A DNA stretch of 64,000 nt from assembly GCA_964202555.1 (NCBI GenBank), contig CAXNJA010000003.1, positions 847-64,846 on the forward strand, given 5' to 3'. This DNA is from Mycobacterium sp. (GTDB lineage Bacteria > Actinomycetota > Actinomycetes > Mycobacteriales > Mycobacteriaceae). Made by a program: the position numbers and the translations under genes. This document shows positions 1-18,509 of the stretch, in pieces; positions within the stretch are counted from its first letter, which is position 1, and each line of letters begins with the position of its first letter. The notes below the pieces were generated by a model. It saw only the letters and a list, made by a program, of their open reading frames with translations. It had not been told where the DNA came from and ran no database searches.

Positions 1-843
1 CACACCCGGCGGGCCTATCTGGCCGACTTACGGTCACTGTTCGCCTTCCTCGACGAGCGCGCCCCGGGAGCCGGACTTGAGGCACTGAGCCTGCCCGTGC
101 TGCGCGCGTGGCTGGCCGCACAGGCCGCTGCGGGGTCGGCCCGCACCACCCTGGCGCGACGGACCTCCGCGGTGAAGACGTTCACGGCCTGGGCCGTCCG
201 CCGGGGTCTGCTGGCCGCCGACCCGGCCGCTCGACTGCAGGTGCCCAAGGCCCGCCGCACCCTGCCGTCGGTTCTGCGTCAGGACCAGGCGCTGGCCGCG
301 ATGGCCGCCGCCGAGCTCGGCGCCCAGCAACGCGACCCGCTCGCCTTACGTGACAAGCTCATCGTGGAGTTGCTGTACGCCACCGGTATCCGGGTCAGCG
401 AGTTGTGCGGCCTCGACGTCGACGACATCGACATCGGCCGGCGAGTGCTGCGGGTGCTGGGCAAGGGCAACAAGCAGCGCACCGCCCCGTTCGGCCGGCC
501 GGCCGGCGCGGCGATCACCGATTGGCTGACCGACGGCCGTCCTGCCCTGGCGACGCCCGACTCCGGCCCCGCCTTGCTGCTGGGTCCCCGCGGTCGTCGA
601 CTCGATCCGCGGCAGGCCCGCACCGTCGTGCACCAAACCATGTCGGCCGTGGACGGCGCCCCCGACATCGGGCCGCACGGTCTGCGCCACAGTGCGGCCA
701 CCCACCTCCTCGAAGGCGGCGCCGACCTGCGCGTGGTGCAGGAACTTCTCGGCCACTCCAGCCTGGCGACCACCCAGCTCTACACCCATGTCACGGTGGC
801 CCGGTTGCGGGCGGTTCACGACCAGGCCCACCCCCGGGCGTGA
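1..843 (+). CDS. xerC: Tyrosine recombinase XerC (5' end cut by window edge)
   Basis: Frame-1 reading frame is open from nt 1. The C-terminal catalytic box [39 protein letters not shown] is typical of XerC/XerD recombinases. Conserved position upstream of rpsB-tsf. Confidence 0.9.
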
Positions 844-7892: not shown

Positions 7893-8990
7893 GTGAAGCA
7901 GGAACTGGTCTTCGAGGCACCGCGCCGAGGCCTACCGCCCCGCCATTTCGCCGACCTCGACGCTGCCGAGCGGGCTGCCGCGGTGGCCGAACTGGGCCTT
8001 CCGGGGTTTCGGGCAAAGCAGCTGGCCGCGCAGTACTACGGTCGCCTGGTCGCCGATCCGCAGCAGATGACCGACCTGCCGGCGGGTGTCCGCGACGCGG
8101 TGTCGCAAGCCCTGTTCCCGCCGCTGCTGACCGTGGTGCGCCAGGTCGAGTGCGACGCCGGTGACACCCGCAAGACGTTGTGGCGCGGCCGGGACGGTGC
8201 CACCTTCGAGTCGGTGTTGATGCGCTACCCGAACCGCAACACAGTCTGCATCTCCTCGCAGGCCGGCTGCGGTATGGCCTGCCCGTTCTGTGCCACCGGA
8301 CAGGGCGGGTTGACCCGCAACCTCAGCACCGCGGAGATCCTGGAGCAGGTCCGGGACGCGGCGGCGACGCTACGCGACGGGCTGGGGGGCGAGCGGCTGT
8401 CCAACGTCGTCTTCATGGGGATGGGCGAGCCGTTGGCCAATTACGCGCGGGTGGTGGCCGCCGTGAGCCGGATCACCGCGGCACCGCCGGACGGGTTCGG
8501 TATCTCGGCGCGTTCGGTGACGGTATCCACGGTCGGACTGGCGCCGGCGATCCGCAAGCTGGCCGATGAGCGCCTCGGCGTGACGCTGGCGCTGTCCCTG
8601 CACACCCCTGACGACGAACTGCGCGACACCCTGGTGCCGGTGAACGAGAGATGGAAGGTCCACGAAGTCCTTGATGCCGCCCGCTACTACGGACAGTTGA
8701 CCGGACGGCGGGTGTCGATCGAGTACGCGCTGATCCGCGACGTCAATGACCAGCCGTGGCGCGCTGACTTACTGGGCAAGAAGTTACATGCGGCGCTGGG
8801 GCCGCTGGCGCACGTCAACCTGATTCCGCTGAACCCGACACCGGGCAGCGAATGGGATGCCAGCCCCAAACCGGTGGAGCGCGAGTTCGTCCGCCGGGTC
8901 AGGGCCCAAGGTGTGTCGTGCACGGTTCGGGACACTCGCGGGCGGGAGATCGCCGCCGCATGCGGTCAGTTGGCCGCCACCGAGAAGTAG
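7893..8990 (+). CDS. rlmN: 23S rRNA/tRNA (adenine-C2)-methyltransferase, radical SAM
   Basis: GTG start. Radical-SAM cluster motif [19 protein letters not shown] and C-terminal IAAACGQL typical of RlmN. Confidence 0.9.
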
Positions 8991-9010
8991 AACCGACCGA
9001 CCGGCGGGTG

Positions 9011-9265
9011 TCAGCGCAGCAGGCCGCGCTTGCGCATGATGTAGTCGCGCGCCATGACGAACACGATGCCGACTGCGAAGGCGATCAGGAACCAGTTCTC
9101 CACGTGCCCGATGTGGTTGCCGTGCATCATGCCCAGCAGGAACAGCACGATGAAGATGCCCACTCCGTACCAGACCCCGTGGTGGATCTTGCTCCAACCC
9201 CACTCCGCTGACGGCACGTCGGCGGGATCTACCTCCGAGTAACGCTCCACCTCGGTGTTGGCCAT
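9011..9265 (-). CDS. Small conserved actinobacterial membrane protein (DUF2631-like)
   Basis: 84 aa with two hydrophobic helices (GVWYGVGIFIVLFLLGMM, WFLIAFAVGIVFVMA). Position is analogous to the small membrane protein next to mpt70 in M. tuberculosis. The family name is from memory. Confidence 0.6.
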   Translation of the reverse strand: MANTEVERYSEVDPADVPSAEWGWSKIHHGVWYGVGIFIVLFLLGMMHGNHIGHVENWFLIAFAVGIVFVMARDYIMRKRGLLR

Positions 9266-9337
9266 TGCCGCTCCTCACTTCTGACTGCCGTCATTCTGGC
9301 ATACCCGCGCCCATGATCGACGGCGATCCTGCCGGTC

Positions 9338-10684
9338 TCACCGCAGCAGCCCGTACCGGCGCAGCGCCTCGGTACGTTCGGCGGCGTGGTCCACGATCGG
9401 CTCGGGATAGTCCGCGGGTCGGCCACCTTTGAACCGGTGCGGGTCGGGCGTCTCGGCCAGTTCCGGCACCCACCGGCGCACGTAGTCGCCGGCCGGATCG
9501 AACTTCTCACCCTGCGCGGTCGGGTTGAACACCCGGAAATACGGCGCGGCGTCGGTGCCGGTGCCCGCGGCCCACTGCCAGCCGTGCTGGTTGCTGGCCA
9601 CGTCGGCGTCGACCAGTTGCTCCAGGAACCAGCGGGCCCCCCACTGCCACGGCAGATGAAGGTCCTTGACCAGGAACGATGCCACGATCATCCGTACCCT
9701 GTTGTGCATGAACCCGCTGTCGGACAACTGCCGCATCCCGGCGTCGACGATCGGATAGCCGGTGCGGCCCTGCTTCCAAGCCTCGAACGCGACCCGCGCC
9801 GCCGAGTCGGTGTCCACCTCGATGGCGTCGAACGCCGGGTTCCAGTTGTGCCAGGCGCTGGCCGGCCACTGGTGCAACACCGAGGCGTAGAAATCCCGAA
9901 AGGCCAACTCCCGCACATAGGCGCTCGCCGCGGAATCGCTGAGATCCAGATCAGACACCAGGGTCCGGGGATGGATGGTGCCGAACTTCAGATGCGCCGA
10001 CAGCCGACTGGTTCCCGGCTTATCGGGGCGGTCCCGGTCGGCGGCGTAGCCATGCAAGCCCTCGGCGCGGAATTCCGACCACCGTTGCCGGGCCGCGGCC
10101 TCGCCGGCCGGAACGTCGAGAACCGCTCCCGGATCGGGCGCCTCCACCCGCGCCGGCAAAGCCGCCAGCGTGCCGGGATCGATCCACCCGGTGACGTCCG
10201 GGCCGGACTGAGCGGGGCTGCGCCAGCCCACTTCACGCCAGCGCCGGAAGTACGGGGTGAAGACCTTGTAGGGGCCGCCGTCGTCCTTGGTGACCCGCCC
10301 CGGTGACACCAGGTAGGGCGAACCGGTGGCCACCAACGGGATCTTCCGGGTGGCAAGGCTGTCGCGCACCGCTGCGTCCCGGCGCATCCCGAACGGGCTG
10401 AAGTCCGCCGAGATGTGGACCGCCGTCGCGGCGGCCGCGGCGCAGATCTGCGGGAGGTGTTCTTCCGGGCGGCCGCGGGTGATCAGCAGACGCCCGTCCA
10501 GCGCCGCGTTGAGTTCGCGCAGGCAGTCGCCGAGGAATTGCAGACGGCGGGGTCCGGCGTTGGCCTCCAGACGGGGATCCAGCACGAAGCAGGGCAGCAC
10601 ATCGGCGCTGTCGGAGGCTTCCAGCAGGGGCGGCAGGTCGCGCAGGCGAAGGTCGCGGCGAAACCACAGAACGGTGGAGGGCAC
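9338..10684 (-). CDS. phr: Deoxyribodipyrimidine photolyase / cryptochrome family
   Basis: N-terminus VLWFRRDLRLRDLPPLL and the FAD-binding C-terminal block HNRVRMIVASFLVKDL..WQWAAGTGTDAAPYFRVFNP. GTG start lies 4 nt after the upstream gene's stop. Confidence 0.9.
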   Translation of the reverse strand: MPSTVLWFRRDLRLRDLPPLLEASDSADVLPCFVLDPRLEANAGPRRLQFLGDCLRELNAALDGRLLITRGRPEEHLPQICAAAAATAVHISADFSPFGMRRDAAVRDSLATRKIPLVATGSPYLVSPGRVTKDDGGPYKVFTPYFRRWREVGWRSPAQSGPDVTGWIDPGTLAALPARVEAPDPGAVLDVPAGEAAARQRWSEFRAEGLHGYAADRDRPDKPGTSRLSAHLKFGTIHPRTLVSDLDLSDSAASAYVRELAFRDFYASVLHQWPASAWHNWNPAFDAIEVDTDSAARVAFEAWKQGRTGYPIVDAGMRQLSDSGFMHNRVRMIVASFLVKDLHLPWQWGARWFLEQLVDADVASNQHGWQWAAGTGTDAAPYFRVFNPTAQGEKFDPAGDYVRRWVPELAETPDPHRFKGGRPADYPEPIVDHAAERTEALRRYGLLR

Positions 10685-10688
10685 CTCC

Positions 10689-13208
10689 CTATGCTGCCGG
10701 GTGCCGGAGTCTGGTCAGTCGCGGGGCGGCGGTGTCACCGGGCCTGGTTATCTCCAGTCCGCTGATGTGTCGGCGCACGGCGGTGATCGCCCACGCCAGG
10801 AAAGACCCCACCAGCAGCGAGACGACCACTCCCGGCAGCGGATGGCCAAACAGCGGATAGACCTGGAAATGGGTGAGATAGGTGTATAGCGAGCCTTCGG
10901 CGATGATGCCGGCGGCGGCGGCCACCCGCGCGGGGCAACGCAGCGCGGGCAGCCAGATCAACAGCAACAGGCCGACGCCGACGATCACCTCACGCTGGCC
11001 GCTGCCGAAGTACCCGTGCAGGGCGATCAGCGCGGCGCCGGACAGCACCGCCCGCCGCCAAAGGGTGTCGGCCTTGGCTGCGGCCCAGCCCACGGCGAAG
11101 AACCAGAACGCCAGCAGTGTGAACCATGCCTGCCGTCCCAACTCCAGGCCCAGCGCGTCGTAACGCAACGCCAGACCCGCCGCCAGCACTGCCATCGCCG
11201 AAGCGAACGGCCATCGTCGTTCCAGCCGATCCACGGCGGGAATCCAGACCACCGCGGCCAGCGCCACCAGCGTCCACACCAGTGCCTCGATGAACCACAG
11301 TCGCCCGGCGGTCATGCTGTCGTGAGGGCCGAGAAGTTTCTGCAGCAGAACCAGATTGGTGGCTGCATAGTCATCGGAGAAGGTCATCACCGCCGCGATC
11401 CAGAGCACCGACGGAACCGCGATCCACCCAACGGTCTTGACGATCCGGTCGACCCGCTCCCGGCGCGGACCGCGGCCCAGGCAGAACTGCGCGAAATTGA
11501 AGCCGGCCACCGCCAGCAGGATGTGCGCCCCGCCCCACAGCGTGAACAACCCCGCGTGGGAGCCGACGATCAGCACGATCGCCATAGCGCGCAACGCCAC
11601 CCCGGTATCCAGCCGGACGCCCCAGCGCCGGGTGGTCGGGTTGCTGTTGCGGCGGGTCGCCTCCAACTCGCCGACGGTCCGCGATGACCAGTGCGGGGGC
11701 AGATCGCCGAGCAGCCGCTCCAGGCGTACCGACGTCGTCACATAGGACAGCGACGTTCCGCCCAGATCCACGAAACTACGGTCGGTGCGAACCGTGGCAG
11801 GGTCGATCTGCAACACGTCGGCGAACAGTTCGCGAACCCCGGCCGGGGCCTGGGCGTCGGCGGGCCGACTGATCTGTCGTAGCCGCGCATAGTCCGGCTT
11901 GCCGGCCGCCAGGACGGGCAGTTCCGGCAGGCACACCGCGCGCACCGCGTCGACCGGTAGGCCTGCCGCGGTCGCGGCGCGCCGCCTCAACGCGCCCGGG
12001 TCCGCGGCCCGGCCCGCCGTTGCGACCAGCAACCGCCCTTCTGATTCGGTGCACATGGCCACCGCACCCGGCGTGGTGACCGCCGCCTCAATCCGTTGCA
12101 GGTCGATGCGCAGCCCGTAAAGCTTGACGAACCTGCTCAGCCGTCCGACGACCTGGTAGATCCCACCGCCCAGATCGCGCGCGACGTCGCCGGTGCGCAA
12201 CGCTGCCAACGTGCTGCCGGCGGCCAGGTCCGCCTTGGACTCGGCGTAGCCCATCATGACGTTGGGCCCCCGGTAGACCAGTTCGCCGACGTCCGGTTCG
12301 GCCCAACCGTCCACCGGGGCAAGCTCAAAAGAGCCGCCGGGAATGGCGCGGCCGATCGCCTCGGGATGTTCCAGCGCCGTCGCCGGCGGCAGGTAGGCCA
12401 TCCGGGCGGTGGCCTCGGTAGCGCCGTACATGACCACGAAGTCGAACCCCCGGCGTCTGCCCAGACGGACATAACGGCGAACCGCCTCGGGGTTCAGCCG
12501 GCCGCCGGCCTGGGTGACGTAACGCAGACTGGGCAGATCCATATCGGCGAATCCGGCCCGGTCCAACATGTCAAACGTGTACGGCACGCCGGCGAAACTC
12601 GTTGCGCCGTAACGCTTGAATAGATCCCAAAAACCCGGTTCGAGTACTGACCTATCGGTCAGGATCACTCCGGCCCCGGCCCAGAGGTGACTGTGGATCA
12701 CCGAGGCGCCGTAGCAGTACGACAGCGGCAGTGTCGTCGCCGCCCGGTCGCTGTCGGTGATCCCGAGATACTGCACGATCGCCTCGGTGTTGGAACGCAG
12801 GTTTGCCGCCGACAGCCGGACCGCCTTGGGTGAGCCGGTGCTTCCGGACGTGCTGGCCAGCAGGGTCAGATCGGGGTGCAACCGGTGCGCGGTCCGCCGC
12901 CGGCGGTGATCGACGCGACCGGTGGGGTCGATGACCACGTCGGGCTCGTAAACGGCGGCCAGTGCGGTGAAGTCCCGGCCGCGCGGCACCGGCATGACGA
13001 CGTGGCCGGCGGCCAGAGCGCCGAGATAGGACTCCAGGGCCGGCAGGGTGTTCGCCGTTTCGATGAGCACCAGTTTGCGGGCCGGGCCCAGGCGTTCGGC
13101 GACACCCGCCATGCGATCGGCCAGCGCGCTGTAGGTCAGCGTCTGATTCTCCGTCGCGACCGCGAGTCGGTCGGAGAAGCCGGCGATCCGATCGAGAAGG
13201 TCATCCAC
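10689..13208 (-). CDS. Tri-domain protein: adenylation (AMP-ligase) + carrier (PCP/ACP) + acyltransferase-3 (AT3) integral membrane domain
   Basis: Adenylation cores: LLASTSGSTGSPKAV (A3), MYGATEAT (A5), GELVYRGPNVMMGY (A6), LRTGDVARD (A7), GRLSRFVKLYGLRIDLQRIE (A8), AAGKPDY (A10). Carrier motif FVDLGGTSLSY. This is followed by about 330 aa of hydrophobic helices that open with LRAMAIVLIVGSH (the R..H pair typical of AT3 TM1). The GTG start overlaps the upstream ATPase stop by 8 nt. Confidence 0.8.
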   Translation of the reverse strand: MDDLLDRIAGFSDRLAVATENQTLTYSALADRMAGVAERLGPARKLVLIETANTLPALESYLGALAAGHVVMPVPRGRDFTALAAVYEPDVVIDPTGRVDHRRRRTAHRLHPDLTLLASTSGSTGSPKAVRLSAANLRSNTEAIVQYLGITDSDRAATTLPLSYCYGASVIHSHLWAGAGVILTDRSVLEPGFWDLFKRYGATSFAGVPYTFDMLDRAGFADMDLPSLRYVTQAGGRLNPEAVRRYVRLGRRRGFDFVVMYGATEATARMAYLPPATALEHPEAIGRAIPGGSFELAPVDGWAEPDVGELVYRGPNVMMGYAESKADLAAGSTLAALRTGDVARDLGGGIYQVVGRLSRFVKLYGLRIDLQRIEAAVTTPGAVAMCTESEGRLLVATAGRAADPGALRRRAATAAGLPVDAVRAVCLPELPVLAAGKPDYARLRQISRPADAQAPAGVRELFADVLQIDPATVRTDRSFVDLGGTSLSYVTTSVRLERLLGDLPPHWSSRTVGELEATRRNSNPTTRRWGVRLDTGVALRAMAIVLIVGSHAGLFTLWGGAHILLAVAGFNFAQFCLGRGPRRERVDRIVKTVGWIAVPSVLWIAAVMTFSDDYAATNLVLLQKLLGPHDSMTAGRLWFIEALVWTLVALAAVVWIPAVDRLERRWPFASAMAVLAAGLALRYDALGLELGRQAWFTLLAFWFFAVGWAAAKADTLWRRAVLSGAALIALHGYFGSGQREVIVGVGLLLLIWLPALRCPARVAAAAGIIAEGSLYTYLTHFQVYPLFGHPLPGVVVSLLVGSFLAWAITAVRRHISGLEITRPGDTAAPRLTRLRHPAA

Positions 13209-14325
13209 GGCGGCTCCCGAAAACCACCCCTTCGCCGAGGACGTCGACTCGTACCTTGTCCTCGGTCCGCGGAGCGTCGACGCTGTTCTGGCGGGATGTC
13301 AACAAAGCCGTGCCGGGTCCGATGTCTATGGTCAACACGACCTCTCCGCCGAGGAATTCGGAGGCGACCACCACGCCGGTCCCATCACCGCGGTCGCGGA
13401 GGCCGGTCCCATCACCGCGGTCGCGGTCACCGGTCCCATCACCGCGGTCGCGGTCAGAGACCGCAGTGGCGCGCAACTGCTCTGGGCGCAGCATCAACTC
13501 GCCGGGCCCGTCGGCGGCACCTGGCGCGGGCACCGGGCCAAGCACGCATTCGGCGACACCGTCGAGGACCGAGCACGGCAGGAAGACACAGTCTCCGAGG
13601 AACTCCGCGGTCGCCCGGTCGCACGGCCTCAGGTACACCTCCCGCGGTGACCCCAACTGGGTGAAACGCCCATCGAGCATGACCGCCACCTGATCGGCGA
13701 TCGACAACGCCTCCTGTTGGTCGTGGGTGACCAGCAGCGTGGCGACCGCGGCCTGCCGCAGTGTCTGCGCCACGGAGTTGCGGGTGGTGGCGCGCAGTCG
13801 GGCATCCAGTGCGCTGAACGGCTCGTCGAGCAACATCAGAGCCGGTTTGCGCGCCAACGCGCGGGCCAAGGCGACCCGTTGCTGCTGCCCGCCGGACAAC
13901 TCGTCGGGGCGCCGCTGCGCCAGCGTCGGATCCAACGAAACGGTTGCAAGCAGTTGCTCCACACGTTCCCGGACGGCTCTGACCCGCAAGCTGCCCAGCC
14001 CGTAGGCGATGTTCTCACCGACGCTCAGATGGGGGAACAGTGCGCCGTCCTGGGTGACGTAGCCGACCGCCCGCTTGTGCGGTGGCACTGAGCGTCCAGC
14101 GCCGGCCACGATTGACCCGCCGATCGCCACTGTGCCGGAATCCGGTTCCTCGAACCCCGCGATGATCCGCAGCAGAGTGGTCTTTCCGCAGCCGGATGGA
14201 CCCACCACCGCAGTGGTGCCGCCGTTGGCGATGTCCAGGTCAAGTCCGCCGATCACCGGGGTCGTGCCGAATGACTTTGCCAGTGAACGGATTTCAAGAG
14301 TGGATGTCGATGCAGATGTTGTCAT
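13201..14325 (-). CDS. ABC transporter ATP-binding protein (FbpC/PotA-like, iron(III)-type importer)
   Basis: Walker A GPSGCGKTT, signature LSGGQQQRVALARAL, Walker B LMLLDEPFSALD. The C-terminal regulatory (TOBE-like) domain is interrupted by a DRDRGDGTG x3 repeat. ATGA overlap with the permease gene. Confidence 0.9.
   Translation of the reverse strand: MTTSASTSTLEIRSLAKSFGTTPVIGGLDLDIANGGTTAVVGPSGCGKTTLLRIIAGFEEPDSGTVAIGGSIVAGAGRSVPPHKRAVGYVTQDGALFPHLSVGENIAYGLGSLRVRAVRERVEQLLATVSLDPTLAQRRPDELSGGQQQRVALARALARKPALMLLDEPFSALDARLRATTRNSVAQTLRQAAVATLLVTHDQQEALSIADQVAVMLDGRFTQLGSPREVYLRPCDRATAEFLGDCVFLPCSVLDGVAECVLGPVPAPGAADGPGELMLRPEQLRATAVSDRDRGDGTGDRDRGDGTGLRDRGDGTGVVVASEFLGGEVVLTIDIGPGTALLTSRQNSVDAPRTEDKVRVDVLGEGVVFGSRRG
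13378..13458. repeat. 27-bp in-frame tandem repeat x3 inside the ABC ATPase gene
   Basis: The unit ggtcccatcaccgcggtcgcgg plus 5 variable nt is read three times (13378, 13405, 13432). It encodes (D/L)RDRGDGTG x3 on the minus strand. Confidence 0.9.
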
Positions 14326-15827
14326 GGCGCGGTCACCGCCCTAGTTGCCTGCCGAAACAGCAGCATCGTCACCGGCAGCGTCAGCACGACCATGATCGCG
14401 GCGTAGGGAGCGGCGGCGGCGTAGTCCAGTTCACTGGCCAGCGACCAGAACCGCATGGACAGGGTCCGGGTGCCGGTCGGTGCGAGCAGCAGTGTGGCGG
14501 TGAGTTCGGTTGCCACCGCGACGAATACCAGCGCCGCACCGGCCGCCGCGGCCGGCGCGGTGAGTCGCAGTGTCACGCGGGTGAACGTCGCGGCCGGCGA
14601 GACCCCCAGCGATTGAGATGCGTCCTGGAGGCCGGTCGGTACCTGGGCGAGACCGCTCCGCACGTTGACCATTGCTCGGGGGATGAACATCAGCACGTAG
14701 GCGCAGAGCAGCAGTGCCACGGTCTGATAGAGCGGGGGAGTGGCTCTCACGGCCACGTTGACCAGTGCCAGGGCTGTGACGATCCCCGGCAGTGAACTGG
14801 TCACGAAGTGTGCGCCCTCGATCAGCCGCCCGTCCCAGCGCTGGTTGCGTATCGTCACCCAGGCGACCGGGTACGCCAGCGCGGTGGCGGCCAAGGCGCC
14901 GAGAGCGGCCAGACCGGCGGTCTGAGCCAGCGCCATGCCGAGCTCGTCGGGCAGCCAGACGCCGGGGCCGCCGATCCACAGCCAACGCAGGAGCGTCCCA
15001 ACCGGTACGCCGATCGCCAAGGCCGACAACACAATCAGCGCGATCAGGGCTGGAATGCGGGCCCGGCCGAGCCGAATCGGAGTCTGCGGGCGCGGCGCCC
15101 CGGAGCCGATCCGGGCGAACCGGTTGCGACCTCGCGCGGCCACCTCGGCCAGCAACATCAGCAGGCACAACACCACCAGAACACCGGCGAGCATGGAACC
15201 GGCCGCGCCGTCGAAGGTGGATTGGAACTGTTCGACGATGGCGGTGGTGAACGTGTTGAACCGCAGCATGGCGAAGGCGCCGTATTCGGCTAGCAGGTGC
15301 ACACCGATCAGCAATGCCCCGCCGAGGATGGCCAGCCGTAGTTGCGGCAGCACCACCCGGGCGAACACCGCTGCCGGGGCCGAACCCAGGCTGCGCGCCG
15401 ACTCCTCCAGGGCGGGGTCGAGTCTGCGCAGTGCCGCCACCGCCGGCAGGAAGACGAACGGGAAATACGACAGCGTCGTCACCAGCACCGCGGCGCCGAA
15501 TCCGTGCAGCGACGGTGCAACCCCTATCCAGGCGTAGGAATTGACGAAGGCCGGAACGGCCAATGGCGCCACCAGCAACGGCCGCCACCATCCCCGCCCG
15601 GGTACATCGGTGCGTTCGACCAGCCAGGCCGCCGCCACGCCGGTCACGACGCAGGCCGGCACCGTCACCAGCACCACACCCACGGTGTTGAGCAGCAGTT
15701 CGGCCACCCGCGGCCGAAACAGCAGCGCGGCCGCCCGGGTGGGCCCGGTGTGAATGAACGACCACGTCACGAATCCGAGTGGAATCAGCGAGGCGGTGGC
15801 CAGCAACGCGGCGGTGCCGAGGACCAC
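14322..15827 (-). CDS. ABC importer permease, fused two-domain (FbpB/AfuB-like)
   Basis: 501 aa of hydrophobic sequence, about 12 TM helices, made of two similar halves as in iron(III) ABC permeases. It sits between the SBP and ATPase genes. Confidence 0.8.
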   Translation of the reverse strand: MVLGTAALLATASLIPLGFVTWSFIHTGPTRAAALLFRPRVAELLLNTVGVVLVTVPACVVTGVAAAWLVERTDVPGRGWWRPLLVAPLAVPAFVNSYAWIGVAPSLHGFGAAVLVTTLSYFPFVFLPAVAALRRLDPALEESARSLGSAPAAVFARVVLPQLRLAILGGALLIGVHLLAEYGAFAMLRFNTFTTAIVEQFQSTFDGAAGSMLAGVLVVLCLLMLLAEVAARGRNRFARIGSGAPRPQTPIRLGRARIPALIALIVLSALAIGVPVGTLLRWLWIGGPGVWLPDELGMALAQTAGLAALGALAATALAYPVAWVTIRNQRWDGRLIEGAHFVTSSLPGIVTALALVNVAVRATPPLYQTVALLLCAYVLMFIPRAMVNVRSGLAQVPTGLQDASQSLGVSPAATFTRVTLRLTAPAAAAGAALVFVAVATELTATLLLAPTGTRTLSMRFWSLASELDYAAAAPYAAIMVVLTLPVTMLLFRQATRAVTAP

Positions 15828-15877
15828 CCCTCCGACCGGACGGCCCGAGGTCGCTGCTCTGGTCAGGGTCCGAACGG

Positions 15878-16894
15878 TCAGAGCAGGCCCGCCCCGGTCA
15901 TCAGTTCGGTCACCGCGGCGGCGTCGAGTGCGCTGGGGTTGACCTTTGGCGCTTGCAGTTGGTCCAGCGGAACCAGGGCGCTGTTGGCCGGCACCCCACT
16001 GGCGACCGGATACTCGAAGGAGGTTCCGTTCTGCAGAACTTCCTGTCCCCGCTTTCCGGTGATGAAGCCGATGAACTGTTGGGCTTTCTCGGATTTCTTG
16101 CTTGACTTCAGCACGCCACCACCGGAGAGGCTGACGAACGCCCCCGGATCAAAGTTCTTGAAGTAGTGCAGCTTGGTGTTGCCGCTCATCTCCTTGGTCT
16201 TGGCCTGATCGCGGTACCAGTAGTAGTGATAGATCACGCCTCCGTCGACTTCGCCGCCGTTGACCGCACGCAGGGTGGCGATGTTGTCTTTGTAGGCGAC
16301 CGCGTCGGCTTTCATGGCGGTCAGCCACTGCTCGGTCGCGGCCGTGCCGCGCAGTTCCAGCAGCGCGGCCACGATGGCCTGGAAATCCGCTTTGGCCGGG
16401 GGTGCCCCCCAGCGGCCACGCCACTGCGGATTCTGCAGATCGAGCAACGATTTCGGCAGTTGATCTGCACTCAGCTTGGCGGGGTTGTAGACGAACACAG
16501 TGCTGCGGGCAGCCACCCCGACCCAGGAGTTGCTCTCCGGCCGATACTGCTCGGGCACCTGGGCCAGCGTCTGGGAGTCGATCGGCGCCAGTAATCCCGC
16601 CCGCTCGACCGCGGCGATTGCCGGAGAGTTCTCAGTCAGGAAGACATCAGCCGGTGACTCCGGGCCCTCGGCGATGATCTGATTGCCGAGTTCGCTGTCT
16701 CCGCCCTGCCGGTAGACCACCTTGATGCCGGTCTCCTGGGTGAACTCCTCGATCCACTCCTTGGTCAGTGACTCATGCTGAGCGTTGTAGATCAGCAGTT
16801 CCTCCGGCGGAGTGCCCGAACACCCGACGGCCGCGGCGGCCGCACTCATGGCGACGACTACGACCAGCGCCCGGCGCAGGAGACCAACTCGCAT
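15878..16894 (-). CDS. Periplasmic-type solute-binding lipoprotein, iron(III)-binding family (FbpA/AfuA-like)
   Basis: Signal peptide plus lipobox (MSAAAAAVGC). The mature sequence resembles family-1 SBPs of ferric transporters (YNAQHESLT...ENSPAI...YYWYR). RBS gaaaggg. Confidence 0.75.
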   Translation of the reverse strand: MRVGLLRRALVVVVAMSAAAAAVGCSGTPPEELLIYNAQHESLTKEWIEEFTQETGIKVVYRQGGDSELGNQIIAEGPESPADVFLTENSPAIAAVERAGLLAPIDSQTLAQVPEQYRPESNSWVGVAARSTVFVYNPAKLSADQLPKSLLDLQNPQWRGRWGAPPAKADFQAIVAALLELRGTAATEQWLTAMKADAVAYKDNIATLRAVNGGEVDGGVIYHYYWYRDQAKTKEMSGNTKLHYFKNFDPGAFVSLSGGGVLKSSKKSEKAQQFIGFITGKRGQEVLQNGTSFEYPVASGVPANSALVPLDQLQAPKVNPSALDAAAVTELMTGAGLL

Positions 16895-16934
16895 GGCGAA
16901 CGACCCTTTCCAGTGGAACTAAAGGTGTACTAAG

Positions 16935-16953
16935 TGAGGATTGCCTAACCATA
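16935..16953. promoter_or_regulatory. Candidate IdeR iron box
   Basis: TGAGGATTGCCTAACCATA and its complement match the palindromic IdeR consensus TTAGGTTAGGCTAACCTAA at 13-14 of 19 positions (hand alignment). It lies 41-59 nt upstream of the SBP start codon. Confidence 0.4.
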
Positions 16954-17049
16954 CACCCGGGGTCCTTCCGAAAGGAAAGGGCCGGTCGCGGCGGCGTGAA
17001 GGAGAAGCACGCCACCGCGGCCGGCCCAGGTAGTGCCGCGCCTCGCGAC

Positions 17050-17649
17050 TTAGCTGGGAGGCAGCAGCACCGAGTCGATCAGGTAGATCGTGGCATTGGT
17101 GGCCTTGATGCCACCGCACACGACGTTGGCGTTGTTGACCATCAGGTGGTCACCGCTGCCGGTCACCGTCAGCTCGGCACCGTTGACGGTCTTGTGGGTG
17201 CCCACGACCTGGTCCGGGCCGGCCTGACCGGGAACGACGTGGTAGGTCAGGATCGACGTCAGCAGAGCGGAGTCGGTCTTGAGCTTGTCGAGGGTGGCTG
17301 CGTCGATCTTGGCGAACGCGTCATTGGTCGGGGCGAAGACGGTGAACTCCCCACCGTTGAGGGTGCTGACCAGATTCACCCCCGGATTCAGCCCACCGGA
17401 CAGCGCCGCGGCCAGGGTGGTCAGCACCGGGCTGTTGGCGGCGGCAGTCGCCACCGGAACCTTGGCCAGCTCGCCGACTGAGCCGGGACCCATCGGGACC
17501 TGCTGGGCGTAGCCGGCGCAGCCGGGTCCAACCAGGTGCAGATCGGCCGAGGCGACCGGGGCCATGATCAGTGCGAAGCTCGCTGCGGATGCTGCTGCCG
17601 CGACGGCAGCTTTCTTGATGTTCTTCATTGATGTCCTTTCGATTGACAC
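17050..17649 (-). CDS. mpt70: Secreted fasciclin (FAS1) domain protein, MPT70-like
   Basis: Signal peptide ending VASA. FAS1 blocks VLTTLAAALSG..FTVFAPTNDAFAKIDAATLDKLKTD..LTYHVVPG..NATIYLIDSVLLPP. Confidence 0.85.
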   Translation of the reverse strand: MSIERTSMKNIKKAAVAAAASAASFALIMAPVASADLHLVGPGCAGYAQQVPMGPGSVGELAKVPVATAAANSPVLTTLAAALSGGLNPGVNLVSTLNGGEFTVFAPTNDAFAKIDAATLDKLKTDSALLTSILTYHVVPGQAGPDQVVGTHKTVNGAELTVTGSGDHLMVNNANVVCGGIKATNATIYLIDSVLLPPS

Positions 17650-17744
17650 ACCTCACTCGCGGTGTGGTCGTGAAGAGAGTCCGAGGGCACGAAGCCGCCT
17701 GCGCCGGGCGGCACAGGCGGCTCCGCGTCGGAGTCGTGCCGCCG

Positions 17745-18509
17745 CTACGGGGTCGTAGTCGTCGTCGGCGCGCTGGTGGTGGCCGCTGCCGGTGCCGCGG
17801 GCGGCATCAGCACTGTGTCGATGAGATACAGGGTGGCGTTGGCCGTCTTGATACCGCCGCAGACCACGCCGGCGTCGTTGACCTTGATGGCGTCGCCGGA
17901 ACCGGTGACCGTCAGCGACTCACCCTGAACCGTGGTGTGGTCCCCGATGACCGCTTTCGCGTCAGCGCCCGGTCCGGAGACCACGTGGTAGGTCAACACC
18001 GAGGTCAACAGGTCCGAGTCGGTCTTCAGCTTCTCGATGGTGGCCGGGTCGACCTTGGCGAAGGCCTCATCGGTCGGGGCGAACACGGTGAACTCGCCGT
18101 TGTTGAGCGTGTCGACCAGGTTCACGTTGGGGTTGAGCTTGCCCGACAGTGCGCCGGCCAGGGTGGTCAGCACCGGGCTGTTGCCGGCAGCGGTCGCGAC
18201 CGGGTCCTTGGCCAGGCCCGCCACCGAACCCGGGCCGGTGGGCACCTGCTCGGCGTAGCCCGCGCAGCCCGCACCGACGAGTCCGGCGGGCGCCGCTGCC
18301 GCTGACGACATGGCCGAGGTGGCCGACGTCATTGCCGACGACGCCGCCGAGCCTGCTGACGAGGCCGCCGAAGTAGCCGCCGAGCCCGCCGACGAGGCCG
18401 CCGAAGTAGCCGAATCGACTGCTTCCTTGGTCGTCGAGCACGCCGACAGGGTGAGTGCGGTGGCGGCAGCCAGACCTGCAGCAACGAGCACGGAACGATT
18501 GATGGTCAT
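17745..18509 (-). CDS. mpt83: Fasciclin-domain lipoprotein, MPT83-like, with Ser/Ala-rich linker
   Basis: Lipobox LTLSAC, then a roughly 45-aa S/A/T linker ([37 protein letters not shown]), then a FAS1 domain paralogous to the neighbouring gene. Confidence 0.85.

Follow-up and report, generated by a model that had tools for sequence, protein, structure and literature searches.

Analysis of a 64,000-nucleotide stretch of Mycobacterium sp. DNA (the window, taken at its full length; contig CAXNJA010000003.1, positions 847 to 64,846) identified, on the minus strand, genes for an ATP-binding cassette (ABC) importer of the ferric-iron type followed by a gene for A-T-AT3, a single protein composed of an adenylation domain, a carrier domain and an AT3/TmAT membrane acyltransferase domain. 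We consider it probable that these genes form a four-gene core unit, sfuA-like, sfuB-like, sfuC-like and then A-T-AT3, that this cassette is repressed by iron, and that the A-T-AT3 product aids Fe(III) uptake. A preliminary description of the same DNA had proposed a five-gene iron-controlled operon with a photolyase gene at its end. That proposal stands in part: the genes for the substrate-binding protein (SBP), the permease, the ATPase and A-T-AT3 are conserved together with an iron box; the photolyase gene is not a conserved member. The source genome (G000) amounts to 3.02 Mb in 269 contigs and is 90% complete.

Linkage of a ferric importer to A-T-AT3

Full-length A-T-AT3 homologues (56–77% identical) were found in 103 of 300 genomes of the genus, and an SfuA-type SBP in 117 of the 300; all other genus counts were obtained by our own comparison of genome and coordinate lists. 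The SfuA-type SBP was present in 102 of the 103 A-T-AT3 carriers, vs. 15 of the 197 non-carriers. The gene order SBP-permease-ATPase-A-T-AT3 was observed in ~80 of the 103 carrier genomes (first 12 loci checked by tblastn), and the permease gene adjoined the SBP gene in all linked loci. Two genomes (G048 and G115) had a divergent ABC set, with an SBP of 38% identity, in the same place upstream of A-T-AT3. An unlinked A-T-AT3 copy was present in ~19 genomes of the genus; the three copies examined were mutually syntenic and formed, in the A-T-AT3 tree, one derived clade inside the linked copies. The neighbours of these unlinked mycobacterial copies, DUF1206 and acyl-CoA thioesterase genes, offered no functional clue.

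The association was also found outside the genus. Across the class Actinomycetes an A-T-AT3 homologue was detected in 47 of 401 genomes, representing 20 of 174 genera (the tallies include two unpublished genomes, G345 in this count and G031 in a count of 40 of 41; neither contributes a locus or supports any other claim). When 20 class-wide loci were fetched from different families, a ferric-type ABC set adjoined A-T-AT3 in 12 of them. The layouts varied: the ABC genes preceded A-T-AT3 in L040, L045 and L046 and followed it in L043, L051 and L055, whereas the two were divergent in L038, L041, L052 and L053 and convergent in L039 and L056. The linked state was scattered over the A-T-AT3 tree. 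Because the adjacency survives these changes of order and strand, it argues for a functional tie and not for inherited synteny alone. All-against-all clustering of the neighbouring open reading frames (ORFs) in the class-wide loci yielded no other recurrent partner family. The coupling of importer and A-T-AT3 put forward in the preliminary description depended on their being linked elsewhere, and such linkage was found both in the genus and in the class.

Plasmid copies were found as well. Plasmid pMYCCH.01 of M. chubuense NBB4 (L059) carries the genes in the same order as the window, among metal-resistance genes, and plasmid pROB01 of R. opacus B4 (L058) carries A-T-AT3 followed by the ABC genes. 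Since it is carried on large plasmids in several species, the cassette appears mobile. Two chromosomal copies of the cassette were observed in genome G005.

By homology, the importer is of the Fe(III) type and SfuABC/YfuABC-like. The SBP matched the solved structures of YfuA (1xvx, E = 9e-125) and SfuA (1xvy, E = 2e-124) over residues 33–338, the whole mature part, and further, weaker matches were to HitA and FbpA ferric binding protein structures; the Fe(III) specificity assigned to the importer in the preliminary description agrees with this ranking. The N-terminus consists of a signal peptide with a lipobox ending in ...AAVGC. The segments NAQHE (37), TENSP (87) and YHYY (222) were identical to YfuA and SfuA in the alignment and may contain the metal ligands, a His, a Glu and a Tyr-Tyr pair in FbpA. 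The best NCBIfam matches of the ATPase were to 2-aminoethylphosphonate (PhnT2) and polyamine (PotA) ATPases, with no curated cut-off reached, and the ferric ATPase model PRK11432 scored 228.6 bits. As all NCBIfam matches of the importer (2-aminoethylphosphonate, thiamine, polyamine and ferric models) were sub-threshold, the ferric assignment rests on the structural relatives. The ATPase gene also contains an in-frame 27-bp sequence repeated three times (13376–13456, 94% matches) in the part encoding the C-terminal TOBE domain. This triplication looks specific to the present lineage, because the ATPases of relatives are ~18 amino acids (aa) shorter as judged by tblastn spans.

The window importer shares its SBP class, fused permease and TOBE-type ATPase with SfuABC of Serratia marcescens, YfuABC of Yersinia and FbpABC/HitABC of Neisseria and Haemophilus, and the order binding protein, permease, ATPase is the same as in these systems. 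It differs from them in its actinobacterial host, in having a lipoprotein as SBP, in apparent control through an IdeR box rather than by Fur, and in the addition of a fourth, translationally coupled gene, A-T-AT3. The classical enterobacterial operons are not known to contain an A-T-AT3-like gene.

A ferric importer had been considered unusual for mycobacteria in the preliminary description. This view is not tenable, given the number of genus genomes with an SfuA-type SBP and the experimental test of a paralogue in M. smegmatis (PMC6684656). The SfuABC-like operon msmeg_3633/3635/3636 is required by M. smegmatis for low-iron growth when both siderophores are absent, and deletion of its permease impairs low-iron growth under the same condition (PMC6684656). 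The msmeg_3633-3636 system is like the window cassette in being SfuABC-like and common in environmental mycobacteria; in contrast, its published description is of an operon with three genes, and A-T-AT3 is not among its neighbours. M. tuberculosis lacks an orthologue of this paralogous transporter (PMC6684656). A second importer of this kind was found in G001 (L060, G001:C1:3110000-3129900) and G208 (L061), with an SBP 39–41% identical to the window SBP. Pfam annotation, applied to L060 only, placed two CBS/CNNM genes on one side of the paralogous set and guaB1 and gnd on the other, and msmeg_3632-3638 are listed in the same gnd/guaB1/CBS-protein context (PMC6684656 supplement). On the strength of sequence and gene context, the published M. 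smegmatis importer is a paralogue of the window importer. An iron-box-like site with five mismatches was found upstream of the paralogous importer of G001 and G208, and two more iron boxes were noticed ~8–9 kb from it in L060 and L061.

No salicylate synthase was detected above cut-off in this 90%-complete genome, and only one siderophore-type (Peripla_BP_2) binding protein was found. This small-genome lake mycobacterium may rely little on mycobactin-type siderophores.

Iron box and transcription of the cassette

Upstream of the SBP gene, the 19-mer TATGGTTAGGCAATCCTCA at 16953–16935 matches the IdeR consensus TTAGGTTAGGCTAACCTAA at 14 of 19 positions, in keeping with the 13–14 of 19 counted earlier. 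The register that is conserved in relatives, TTAGGCAATCCTCACTTAG (16948–16930), lies 5 nucleotides (nt) downstream of the one first described; both registers represent one site, because the consensus itself repeats every 5 nt. A -10-like TATGGT (16953–16948) overlaps the box. A consensus search of the window with up to three mismatches gave no match. In the 3.02-Mb genome, sites matching at 14 or more of 19 positions numbered 5, none better than 14/19, where ~12 were expected under an independent-base model. The box thus derives its significance from position and conservation in relatives only.

Alignment of the upstream regions of 10 genus loci revealed one conserved block, GGGTAT(G/C)TTC-TTAGG(T/C)AAnnCTCAGCTAA, located ~40–60 nt before the SBP start in 10 of 10 orthologous promoters, with 4–7 mismatches to the consensus. 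The box was conserved in four of five further genus loci. Among the 20 class-wide loci, the sole matches per 20 kb with up to five mismatches were upstream of the SBP gene and/or A-T-AT3 in 18, with 2–5 mismatches and within ~200 nt of starts that were estimated from tblastn coordinates; the background expectation at this threshold is ~0.08 per 20 kb. Over 795 kb of comparative loci, 40 such matches were found vs. ~3 expected. Importer and A-T-AT3 each had a separate box in L039, L040 and L056, and a box with up to five mismatches was present upstream in seven of the eight class-wide loci where A-T-AT3 has no ABC neighbour.

The single DtxR-family gene found in the genome encodes a full-length protein of 231 aa that matches IdeR (1fx7) at E = 1e-120. 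Sites that agree with the consensus at no more than ~13 of 19 positions can be functional IdeR targets (PMC2170428). Conservation of the box in relatives and the presence of a full-length IdeR orthologue support, as a prediction from sequence, the iron-box control that had been suggested for this operon, and we infer that IdeR represses the cassette. The arrangement is like that of the IdeR/DtxR/DmdR1 regulons of Actinomycetota, in which a 19-bp TTAGGTTAGGCTAACCTAA-type box lies over the promoter of iron-uptake genes and an IdeR orthologue is encoded, with the difference that the window box is a weak match. A keyword look-up in the S. coelicolor DmdR1 regulon paper turned up no A-T-AT3 family member (PMC12161575).

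A scan of the whole genome with a matrix derived from the cassette boxes gave no convincing second site: the candidates at C2:82540, C109:7937 and C103:110 adjoin unrelated genes or genes with no Pfam family, their neighbours being sulfate-activation and inositol-phosphatase genes, a gene for a condensation-domain protein and a histidyl-tRNA synthetase gene. Other box-like sequences were noted in passing. At a contig end (G000:C27:23817-23840, L028), two overlapping iron-box-like 19-mers with five mismatches each precede a class III aminotransferase gene by ~80 nt. The intergenic stretches G000:C109:7880-7960 (L027) and G000:C2:82520-82600 (L026) are AT-rich and contain repeated CTCAG(G/C) words resembling half a cassette box; both are near contig ends, and one adjoins a condensation-domain gene.

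ORF coordinates and junction sequences agreed with the head-to-tail packing of five minus-strand genes described earlier, and every domain assigned at that stage was backed by Pfam (Table 1). The SBP and permease genes are separated by 50 nt, the permease and ATPase genes overlap in ATGA, and the ATPase and A-T-AT3 genes overlap by 8 nt (GTGGATGA), with GGGAG 7–11 nt upstream; the 4-nt gap between the A-T-AT3 and photolyase genes consists of GGAG. The 50-nt gap, tested for an attenuator, gave no fold better than shuffles (z = 0.47). The promoter scan found no sigma-70-like promoter, and the terminator scan returned a single candidate site, located within A-T-AT3, whereas shuffled sequences gave more.

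Table 1. Features of the cassette and its immediate surroundings (window coordinates, except for the domain parts of A-T-AT3, which are in residues)
Feature	Position	Strand	Size, domains or basis
Terminator-like hairpin, then CUUUCCUUUC	16981..17025	minus	directly after fasciclin gene fas1; separates fas1 from the cassette promoter
Predicted IdeR/DtxR-type iron box	16930..16953	minus	consensus match and conservation of position
SBP gene (ferric-iron binding lipoprotein, SfuA/YfuA class)	15878-16894	minus	338 aa; Pfam SBP_bac_6/1/11/8
Fused double permease gene, SfuB/FbpB-like	14322-15827	minus	501 aa; Pfam, two BPD_transp_1 stretches
ABC ATPase gene with C-terminal TOBE-type domain	13201-14325	minus	374 aa; Pfam ABC_tran and TOBE_2
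A-T-AT3 fusion gene	10689-13208	minus	839 aa; Pfam AMP-binding, PP-binding, Acyl_transf_3
A-T-AT3 parts	adenylation ~1-450; carrier 458-516 with Ser486; ten-helix AT3/TmAT membrane acyltransferase 535-818		Pfam, alignments, structure models
Class I photolyase gene	9338-10684	minus	448 aa; Pfam DNA_photolyase and FAD_binding_7

Nearly all of the stretch (0.93 of sampled words) was present in metagenome runs from lake water, belonging to 14 studies, and a part of it in freshwater metatranscriptome runs. All five genes were covered by contigs of four RNA libraries, most of them with an identity of at least 99%. One of them (12647–13368) bridges the ATPase/A-T-AT3 junction with no mismatch, another (10227–10728) bridges the A-T-AT3/photolyase junction, and the permease/SBP junction is also bridged. 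These contigs agree with transcription through the junctions; they cannot prove one transcript.

The A-T-AT3 enzyme and its proposed role

The adenylation motifs TSGSTGSPK, MYGATEA, RTGD, GRxSRFVKLYGLRID and GKPDY are intact and were invariant in 30 homologues (A3, A5, A7 and A8 at 120–128, 260–266, 338–341 and 355–369, A10 lysine K437), as was the carrier serine S486 in LGGTSLS. The AT3 domain matched PF01757 at 38.1 bits, vs. a cut-off of 31, over residues 538–804. The motif R540-x10-H551 in helix 1 was invariant in 30 genus-level and 22 class-wide sequences; the RxxR motif at helix 3 (R582/R585) was invariant among the 30 genus homologues, and R585 also class-wide. Both motifs follow a published definition, in which R-x10-H is an ‘absolutely conserved’ AT3 motif (PMC9833829). 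The full-length structure model (predicted local distance difference test, pLDDT, 75.9) consists of an A-T unit and then ten membrane helices. The membrane-domain model (pLDDT 80.6) was closest to HGSNAT (8jkv, Z = 11.1, 238 aligned, root-mean-square deviation 5.9; 8tu9, Z = 10.7) and GWT1 (8xik, Z = 8.9), the next match having Z = 7.3 and only 79 aligned; for helical bundles, Z below ~13 is not decisive. Fold matches of the A-T unit include the EntE-EntB fusion, PltF and LgrA.

The A4 region of the adenylation domain reads PLSYCYGASV, with Cys165 invariant. In a hand alignment with the GrsA A4 motif, Cys165 would occupy the site of the Asp that binds the amino group in amino-acid-activating domains. 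As a lead only, this alignment suggests that the substrate is a carboxylic acid and likely not an alpha-amino acid. An attempt to read the substrate from relatives of the domain ended with a mixed set of neighbours (oxalate-CoA ligase, non-ribosomal peptide synthetase (NRPS) domains, EntE, MenE, MatB and CahJ) that identify none.

The proteins are named only ‘AMP-binding protein’ by the NCBI pipeline, and full-text literature searches and keyword look-ups in individual papers turned up neither an adenylation-carrier-AT3 fusion nor iron control of one. The known AT3 fusions carry SGNH, NRF or racemase domains (PMC12423673). A-T-AT3 is like AT3 (PF01757)/TmAT enzymes (OafA/OafB, OatA, TmaT Rv0228, HGSNAT) in its Pfam match, ten-helix core, R-x10-H and RxxR motifs and fold. 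It has no SGNH domain, and it would differ from them in its donor, a tethered phosphopantetheine arm loaded by the fused adenylation domain.

The likeness to DltABCD, which D-alanylates teichoic acids, is in logic only: a carrier is charged in the cytoplasm by an adenylating enzyme, and the acyl group is then delivered by a polytopic acyltransferase to an acceptor on the other side of the membrane. DltB is an MBOAT, a fold distinct from AT3/TmAT (PMC12423673), the type to which the membrane domain of A-T-AT3 belongs. Moreover, DltA activates D-alanine, whereas the amino-group-binding residue appears to be absent from A-T-AT3, and the Dlt system consists of four separate proteins vs. one polypeptide here. 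The Dlt system is not known to be controlled by iron.

We propose that, when iron is plentiful, Fe-bound IdeR would occupy the box over the -10 region and block transcription, and that under iron limitation the operon would be transcribed, with its tight or overlapping junctions coupling translation of the downstream genes. By homology, the lipoprotein would bind free Fe(III), and the permease and ATPase would import it without a siderophore, the mode reported for the M. smegmatis paralogue. The cytoplasmic adenylation domain of A-T-AT3 would activate a carboxylic acid, probably not an alpha-amino acid, and a thioester bond would then join the acid to the phosphopantetheine arm on the protein’s own carrier domain. 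The loaded arm, chemically the same as in coenzyme A, could then enter the AT3 pore, and the acyl group would be passed to a hydroxyl acceptor outside the membrane. In the weakest and most speculative step, the acylated product would assist in Fe(III) capture or in its transfer to the SBP, for example in the form of metal-binding acyl groups on an envelope glycan. Surface modification and acylation of an iron ligand, the two roles suggested in the preliminary description, are both candidates. The photolyase would ride on the transcript in this lineage only. In its fullest form the proposal makes A-T-AT3 the first carrier-protein-fed AT3, with its own phosphopantetheine arm in place of coenzyme A as the donor that threads the pore, producing an iron-starvation-induced, metal-binding envelope decoration that gathers Fe(III) and feeds an FbpA-type importer. 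Many Actinomycetes would then have in common an ‘iron antenna’ that works without siderophores and has been spread by plasmids; we regard this full version as possible, though clearly less likely than not.

A number of observations weigh against this interpretation. Related genomes are not independent samples. The Rhizobium plasmid homologues (39% identity) have no ferric ABC genes beside them. The box match in the window is weak, with 5–6 mismatches, and by itself no better than chance. No box with up to five mismatches was found at the unlinked mycobacterial A-T-AT3 loci L021, L035 and L036, nor at class-wide L044 and L051 or at L023, L034 and L059. Contigs from RNA libraries may include DNA, and they do not establish that the genes share one transcript. 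The relatives closest to the adenylation domain point to no one substrate (oxalate-CoA ligase, 7e-24; NRPS domains, 3e-21; EntE, MenE and MatB by fold). Finally, the AT3 enzymes studied take acyl-CoA and not a carrier protein as donor, according to published work (PMC9558356), so that a carrier-fed AT3 would be unprecedented.

The alternative that survives best is that A-T-AT3 is co-regulated with iron uptake and has no part in it. The enzyme would then remodel the envelope during starvation, affecting permeability, charge, vesicles or stress protection, and its link to the importer would be a shared regulon. The eight of 20 class-wide loci in which A-T-AT3 stands alone, seven of them behind an iron box of its own, fit this explanation, as do the separate A-T-AT3 and importer boxes in L039, L040 and L056 and the modification of envelope glycans and lipids by known AT3 enzymes (PMC9558356). 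However, A-T-AT3 has stayed next to ferric ABC genes despite changes in gene order and strand, and has done so in several families as well as on plasmids. The two also co-occur in genomes of the genus (102/103 vs. 15/197), and a general stress function is unlikely to track one particular importer so closely. We therefore regard co-regulation without participation as rather unlikely.

It seems improbable that A-T-AT3 serves to produce or release a soluble chelator of iron (either a polymer or a small acyl ester), which would be secreted and not fixed to the envelope. The membrane domain has the fold and motifs of an AT3/TmAT transferase, not condensation domains, and the partner SBP class binds bare Fe(III), not ferric siderophores. 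These features stand against a real resemblance: epsilon-poly-L-lysine synthetase likewise consists of an A-T pair fused to a membrane domain. The want of a recurring partner gene, which makes the enzyme self-contained, would also suit a chelator-producing enzyme, as would a genome with no salicylate synthase above cut-off and one siderophore-type binding protein.

Photolyase and fasciclin genes, and meaning of the cassette

As in class I CPD photolyases, the photolyase has an N-terminal photolyase domain (PF00875, 1e-39) and a C-terminal FAD-binding domain (PF03441, 1e-77), with NCBIfam photolyase models below their cut-offs. Its gene adjoins A-T-AT3 only in this genome and in the closest sampled relative, G055, where the tight junction is kept. 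In G021, G298 and G207 the cassette is followed first by one or two fasciclin genes and then by the photolyase and radical-SAM genes, and no photolyase was found within the fetched flanks of any other locus of the genus or class. The photolyase gene, placed at the end of the operon in the preliminary description, is thus not a conserved member of the unit.

The photolyase might still be a selected, functional operon member in a lake-dwelling lineage, tying light exposure to iron uptake. We give little credence to this idea, since one or two fasciclin genes intervene in the three relatives, no photolyase was seen in the fetched flanks of the other loci, and the fasciclin, photolyase and radical-SAM genes look like an older local backbone in which the cassette sits at two different positions. 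The persistence of the 4-nt gap as a tight junction in G055, the RNA-library contig across the A-T-AT3/photolyase junction and the recovery of the stretch from lake-water metagenome runs of 14 studies are the points in its favour. Very probably, the photolyase is co-transcribed with the cassette in this genome, yet lies outside the conserved unit.

A pair of fasciclin genes (window 17050–18509) is upstream of the cassette in G000 and G055, and one or two fasciclin genes are downstream in G021, G298 and G207 (L013, L031 and L032 compared). This difference in position indicates a local rearrangement around the cassette. On the other side, ~60 nt after the photolyase gene, a minus-strand ORF with no Pfam family (8784–9278) runs into the 3' end of the radical-SAM gene, which lies in convergent orientation. 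It has an in-frame ATG at ~9264 with a good GAGGAG ribosome-binding site and is weakly conserved in G055 (49% identity, E = 5e-9).

The hairpin after fas1 was evaluated in a 96-nt stretch, with a minimum free energy of -57.6 kcal/mol and a z-score of -3.9; 0 of 200 shuffles folded as well. An RNA-library contig, X16 (15694–17266), runs from fas1 across the hairpin and the intergenic region into the SBP gene. Its depth was ~98 at the SBP gene vs. 1–5 downstream, some bins were uncovered in some runs, and contig depth cannot rank genes. That the 19-mer is a chance match, and expression constitutive, driven by read-through from a highly expressed fasciclin gene or under another regulator, is very improbable: X16 and the ~12 sites of at least 14/19 expected by chance in the genome point that way, but orthologous promoters and loci across the class keep the box in the same position, a strong terminator-like hairpin stands between fas1 and the box, and no DtxR-family protein other than IdeR was found in the genome.

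Siderophore-independent iron uptake in mycobacteria and other Actinobacteria is partly understood, with one ferric ABC importer tied to it genetically. The cassette described here contains a second widespread importer of that kind, accompanied by an uncharacterised enzyme that is apparently under the same iron switch. A-T-AT3 is probably a missing partner in the siderophore-independent uptake pathway. If its carrier arm does feed the AT3 domain, this would contradict the acyl-CoA-only view of AT3 enzymes, and the Dlt system would gain a counterpart made of one protein. Culturable carriers exist, for example M. chubuense NBB4, M. litorale and R. opacus B4, which opens the system to standard genetic and biochemical work. 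In the 3-Mb lake mycobacterium itself the cassette may be a main iron route, because no mycobactin-type salicylate synthase was found.

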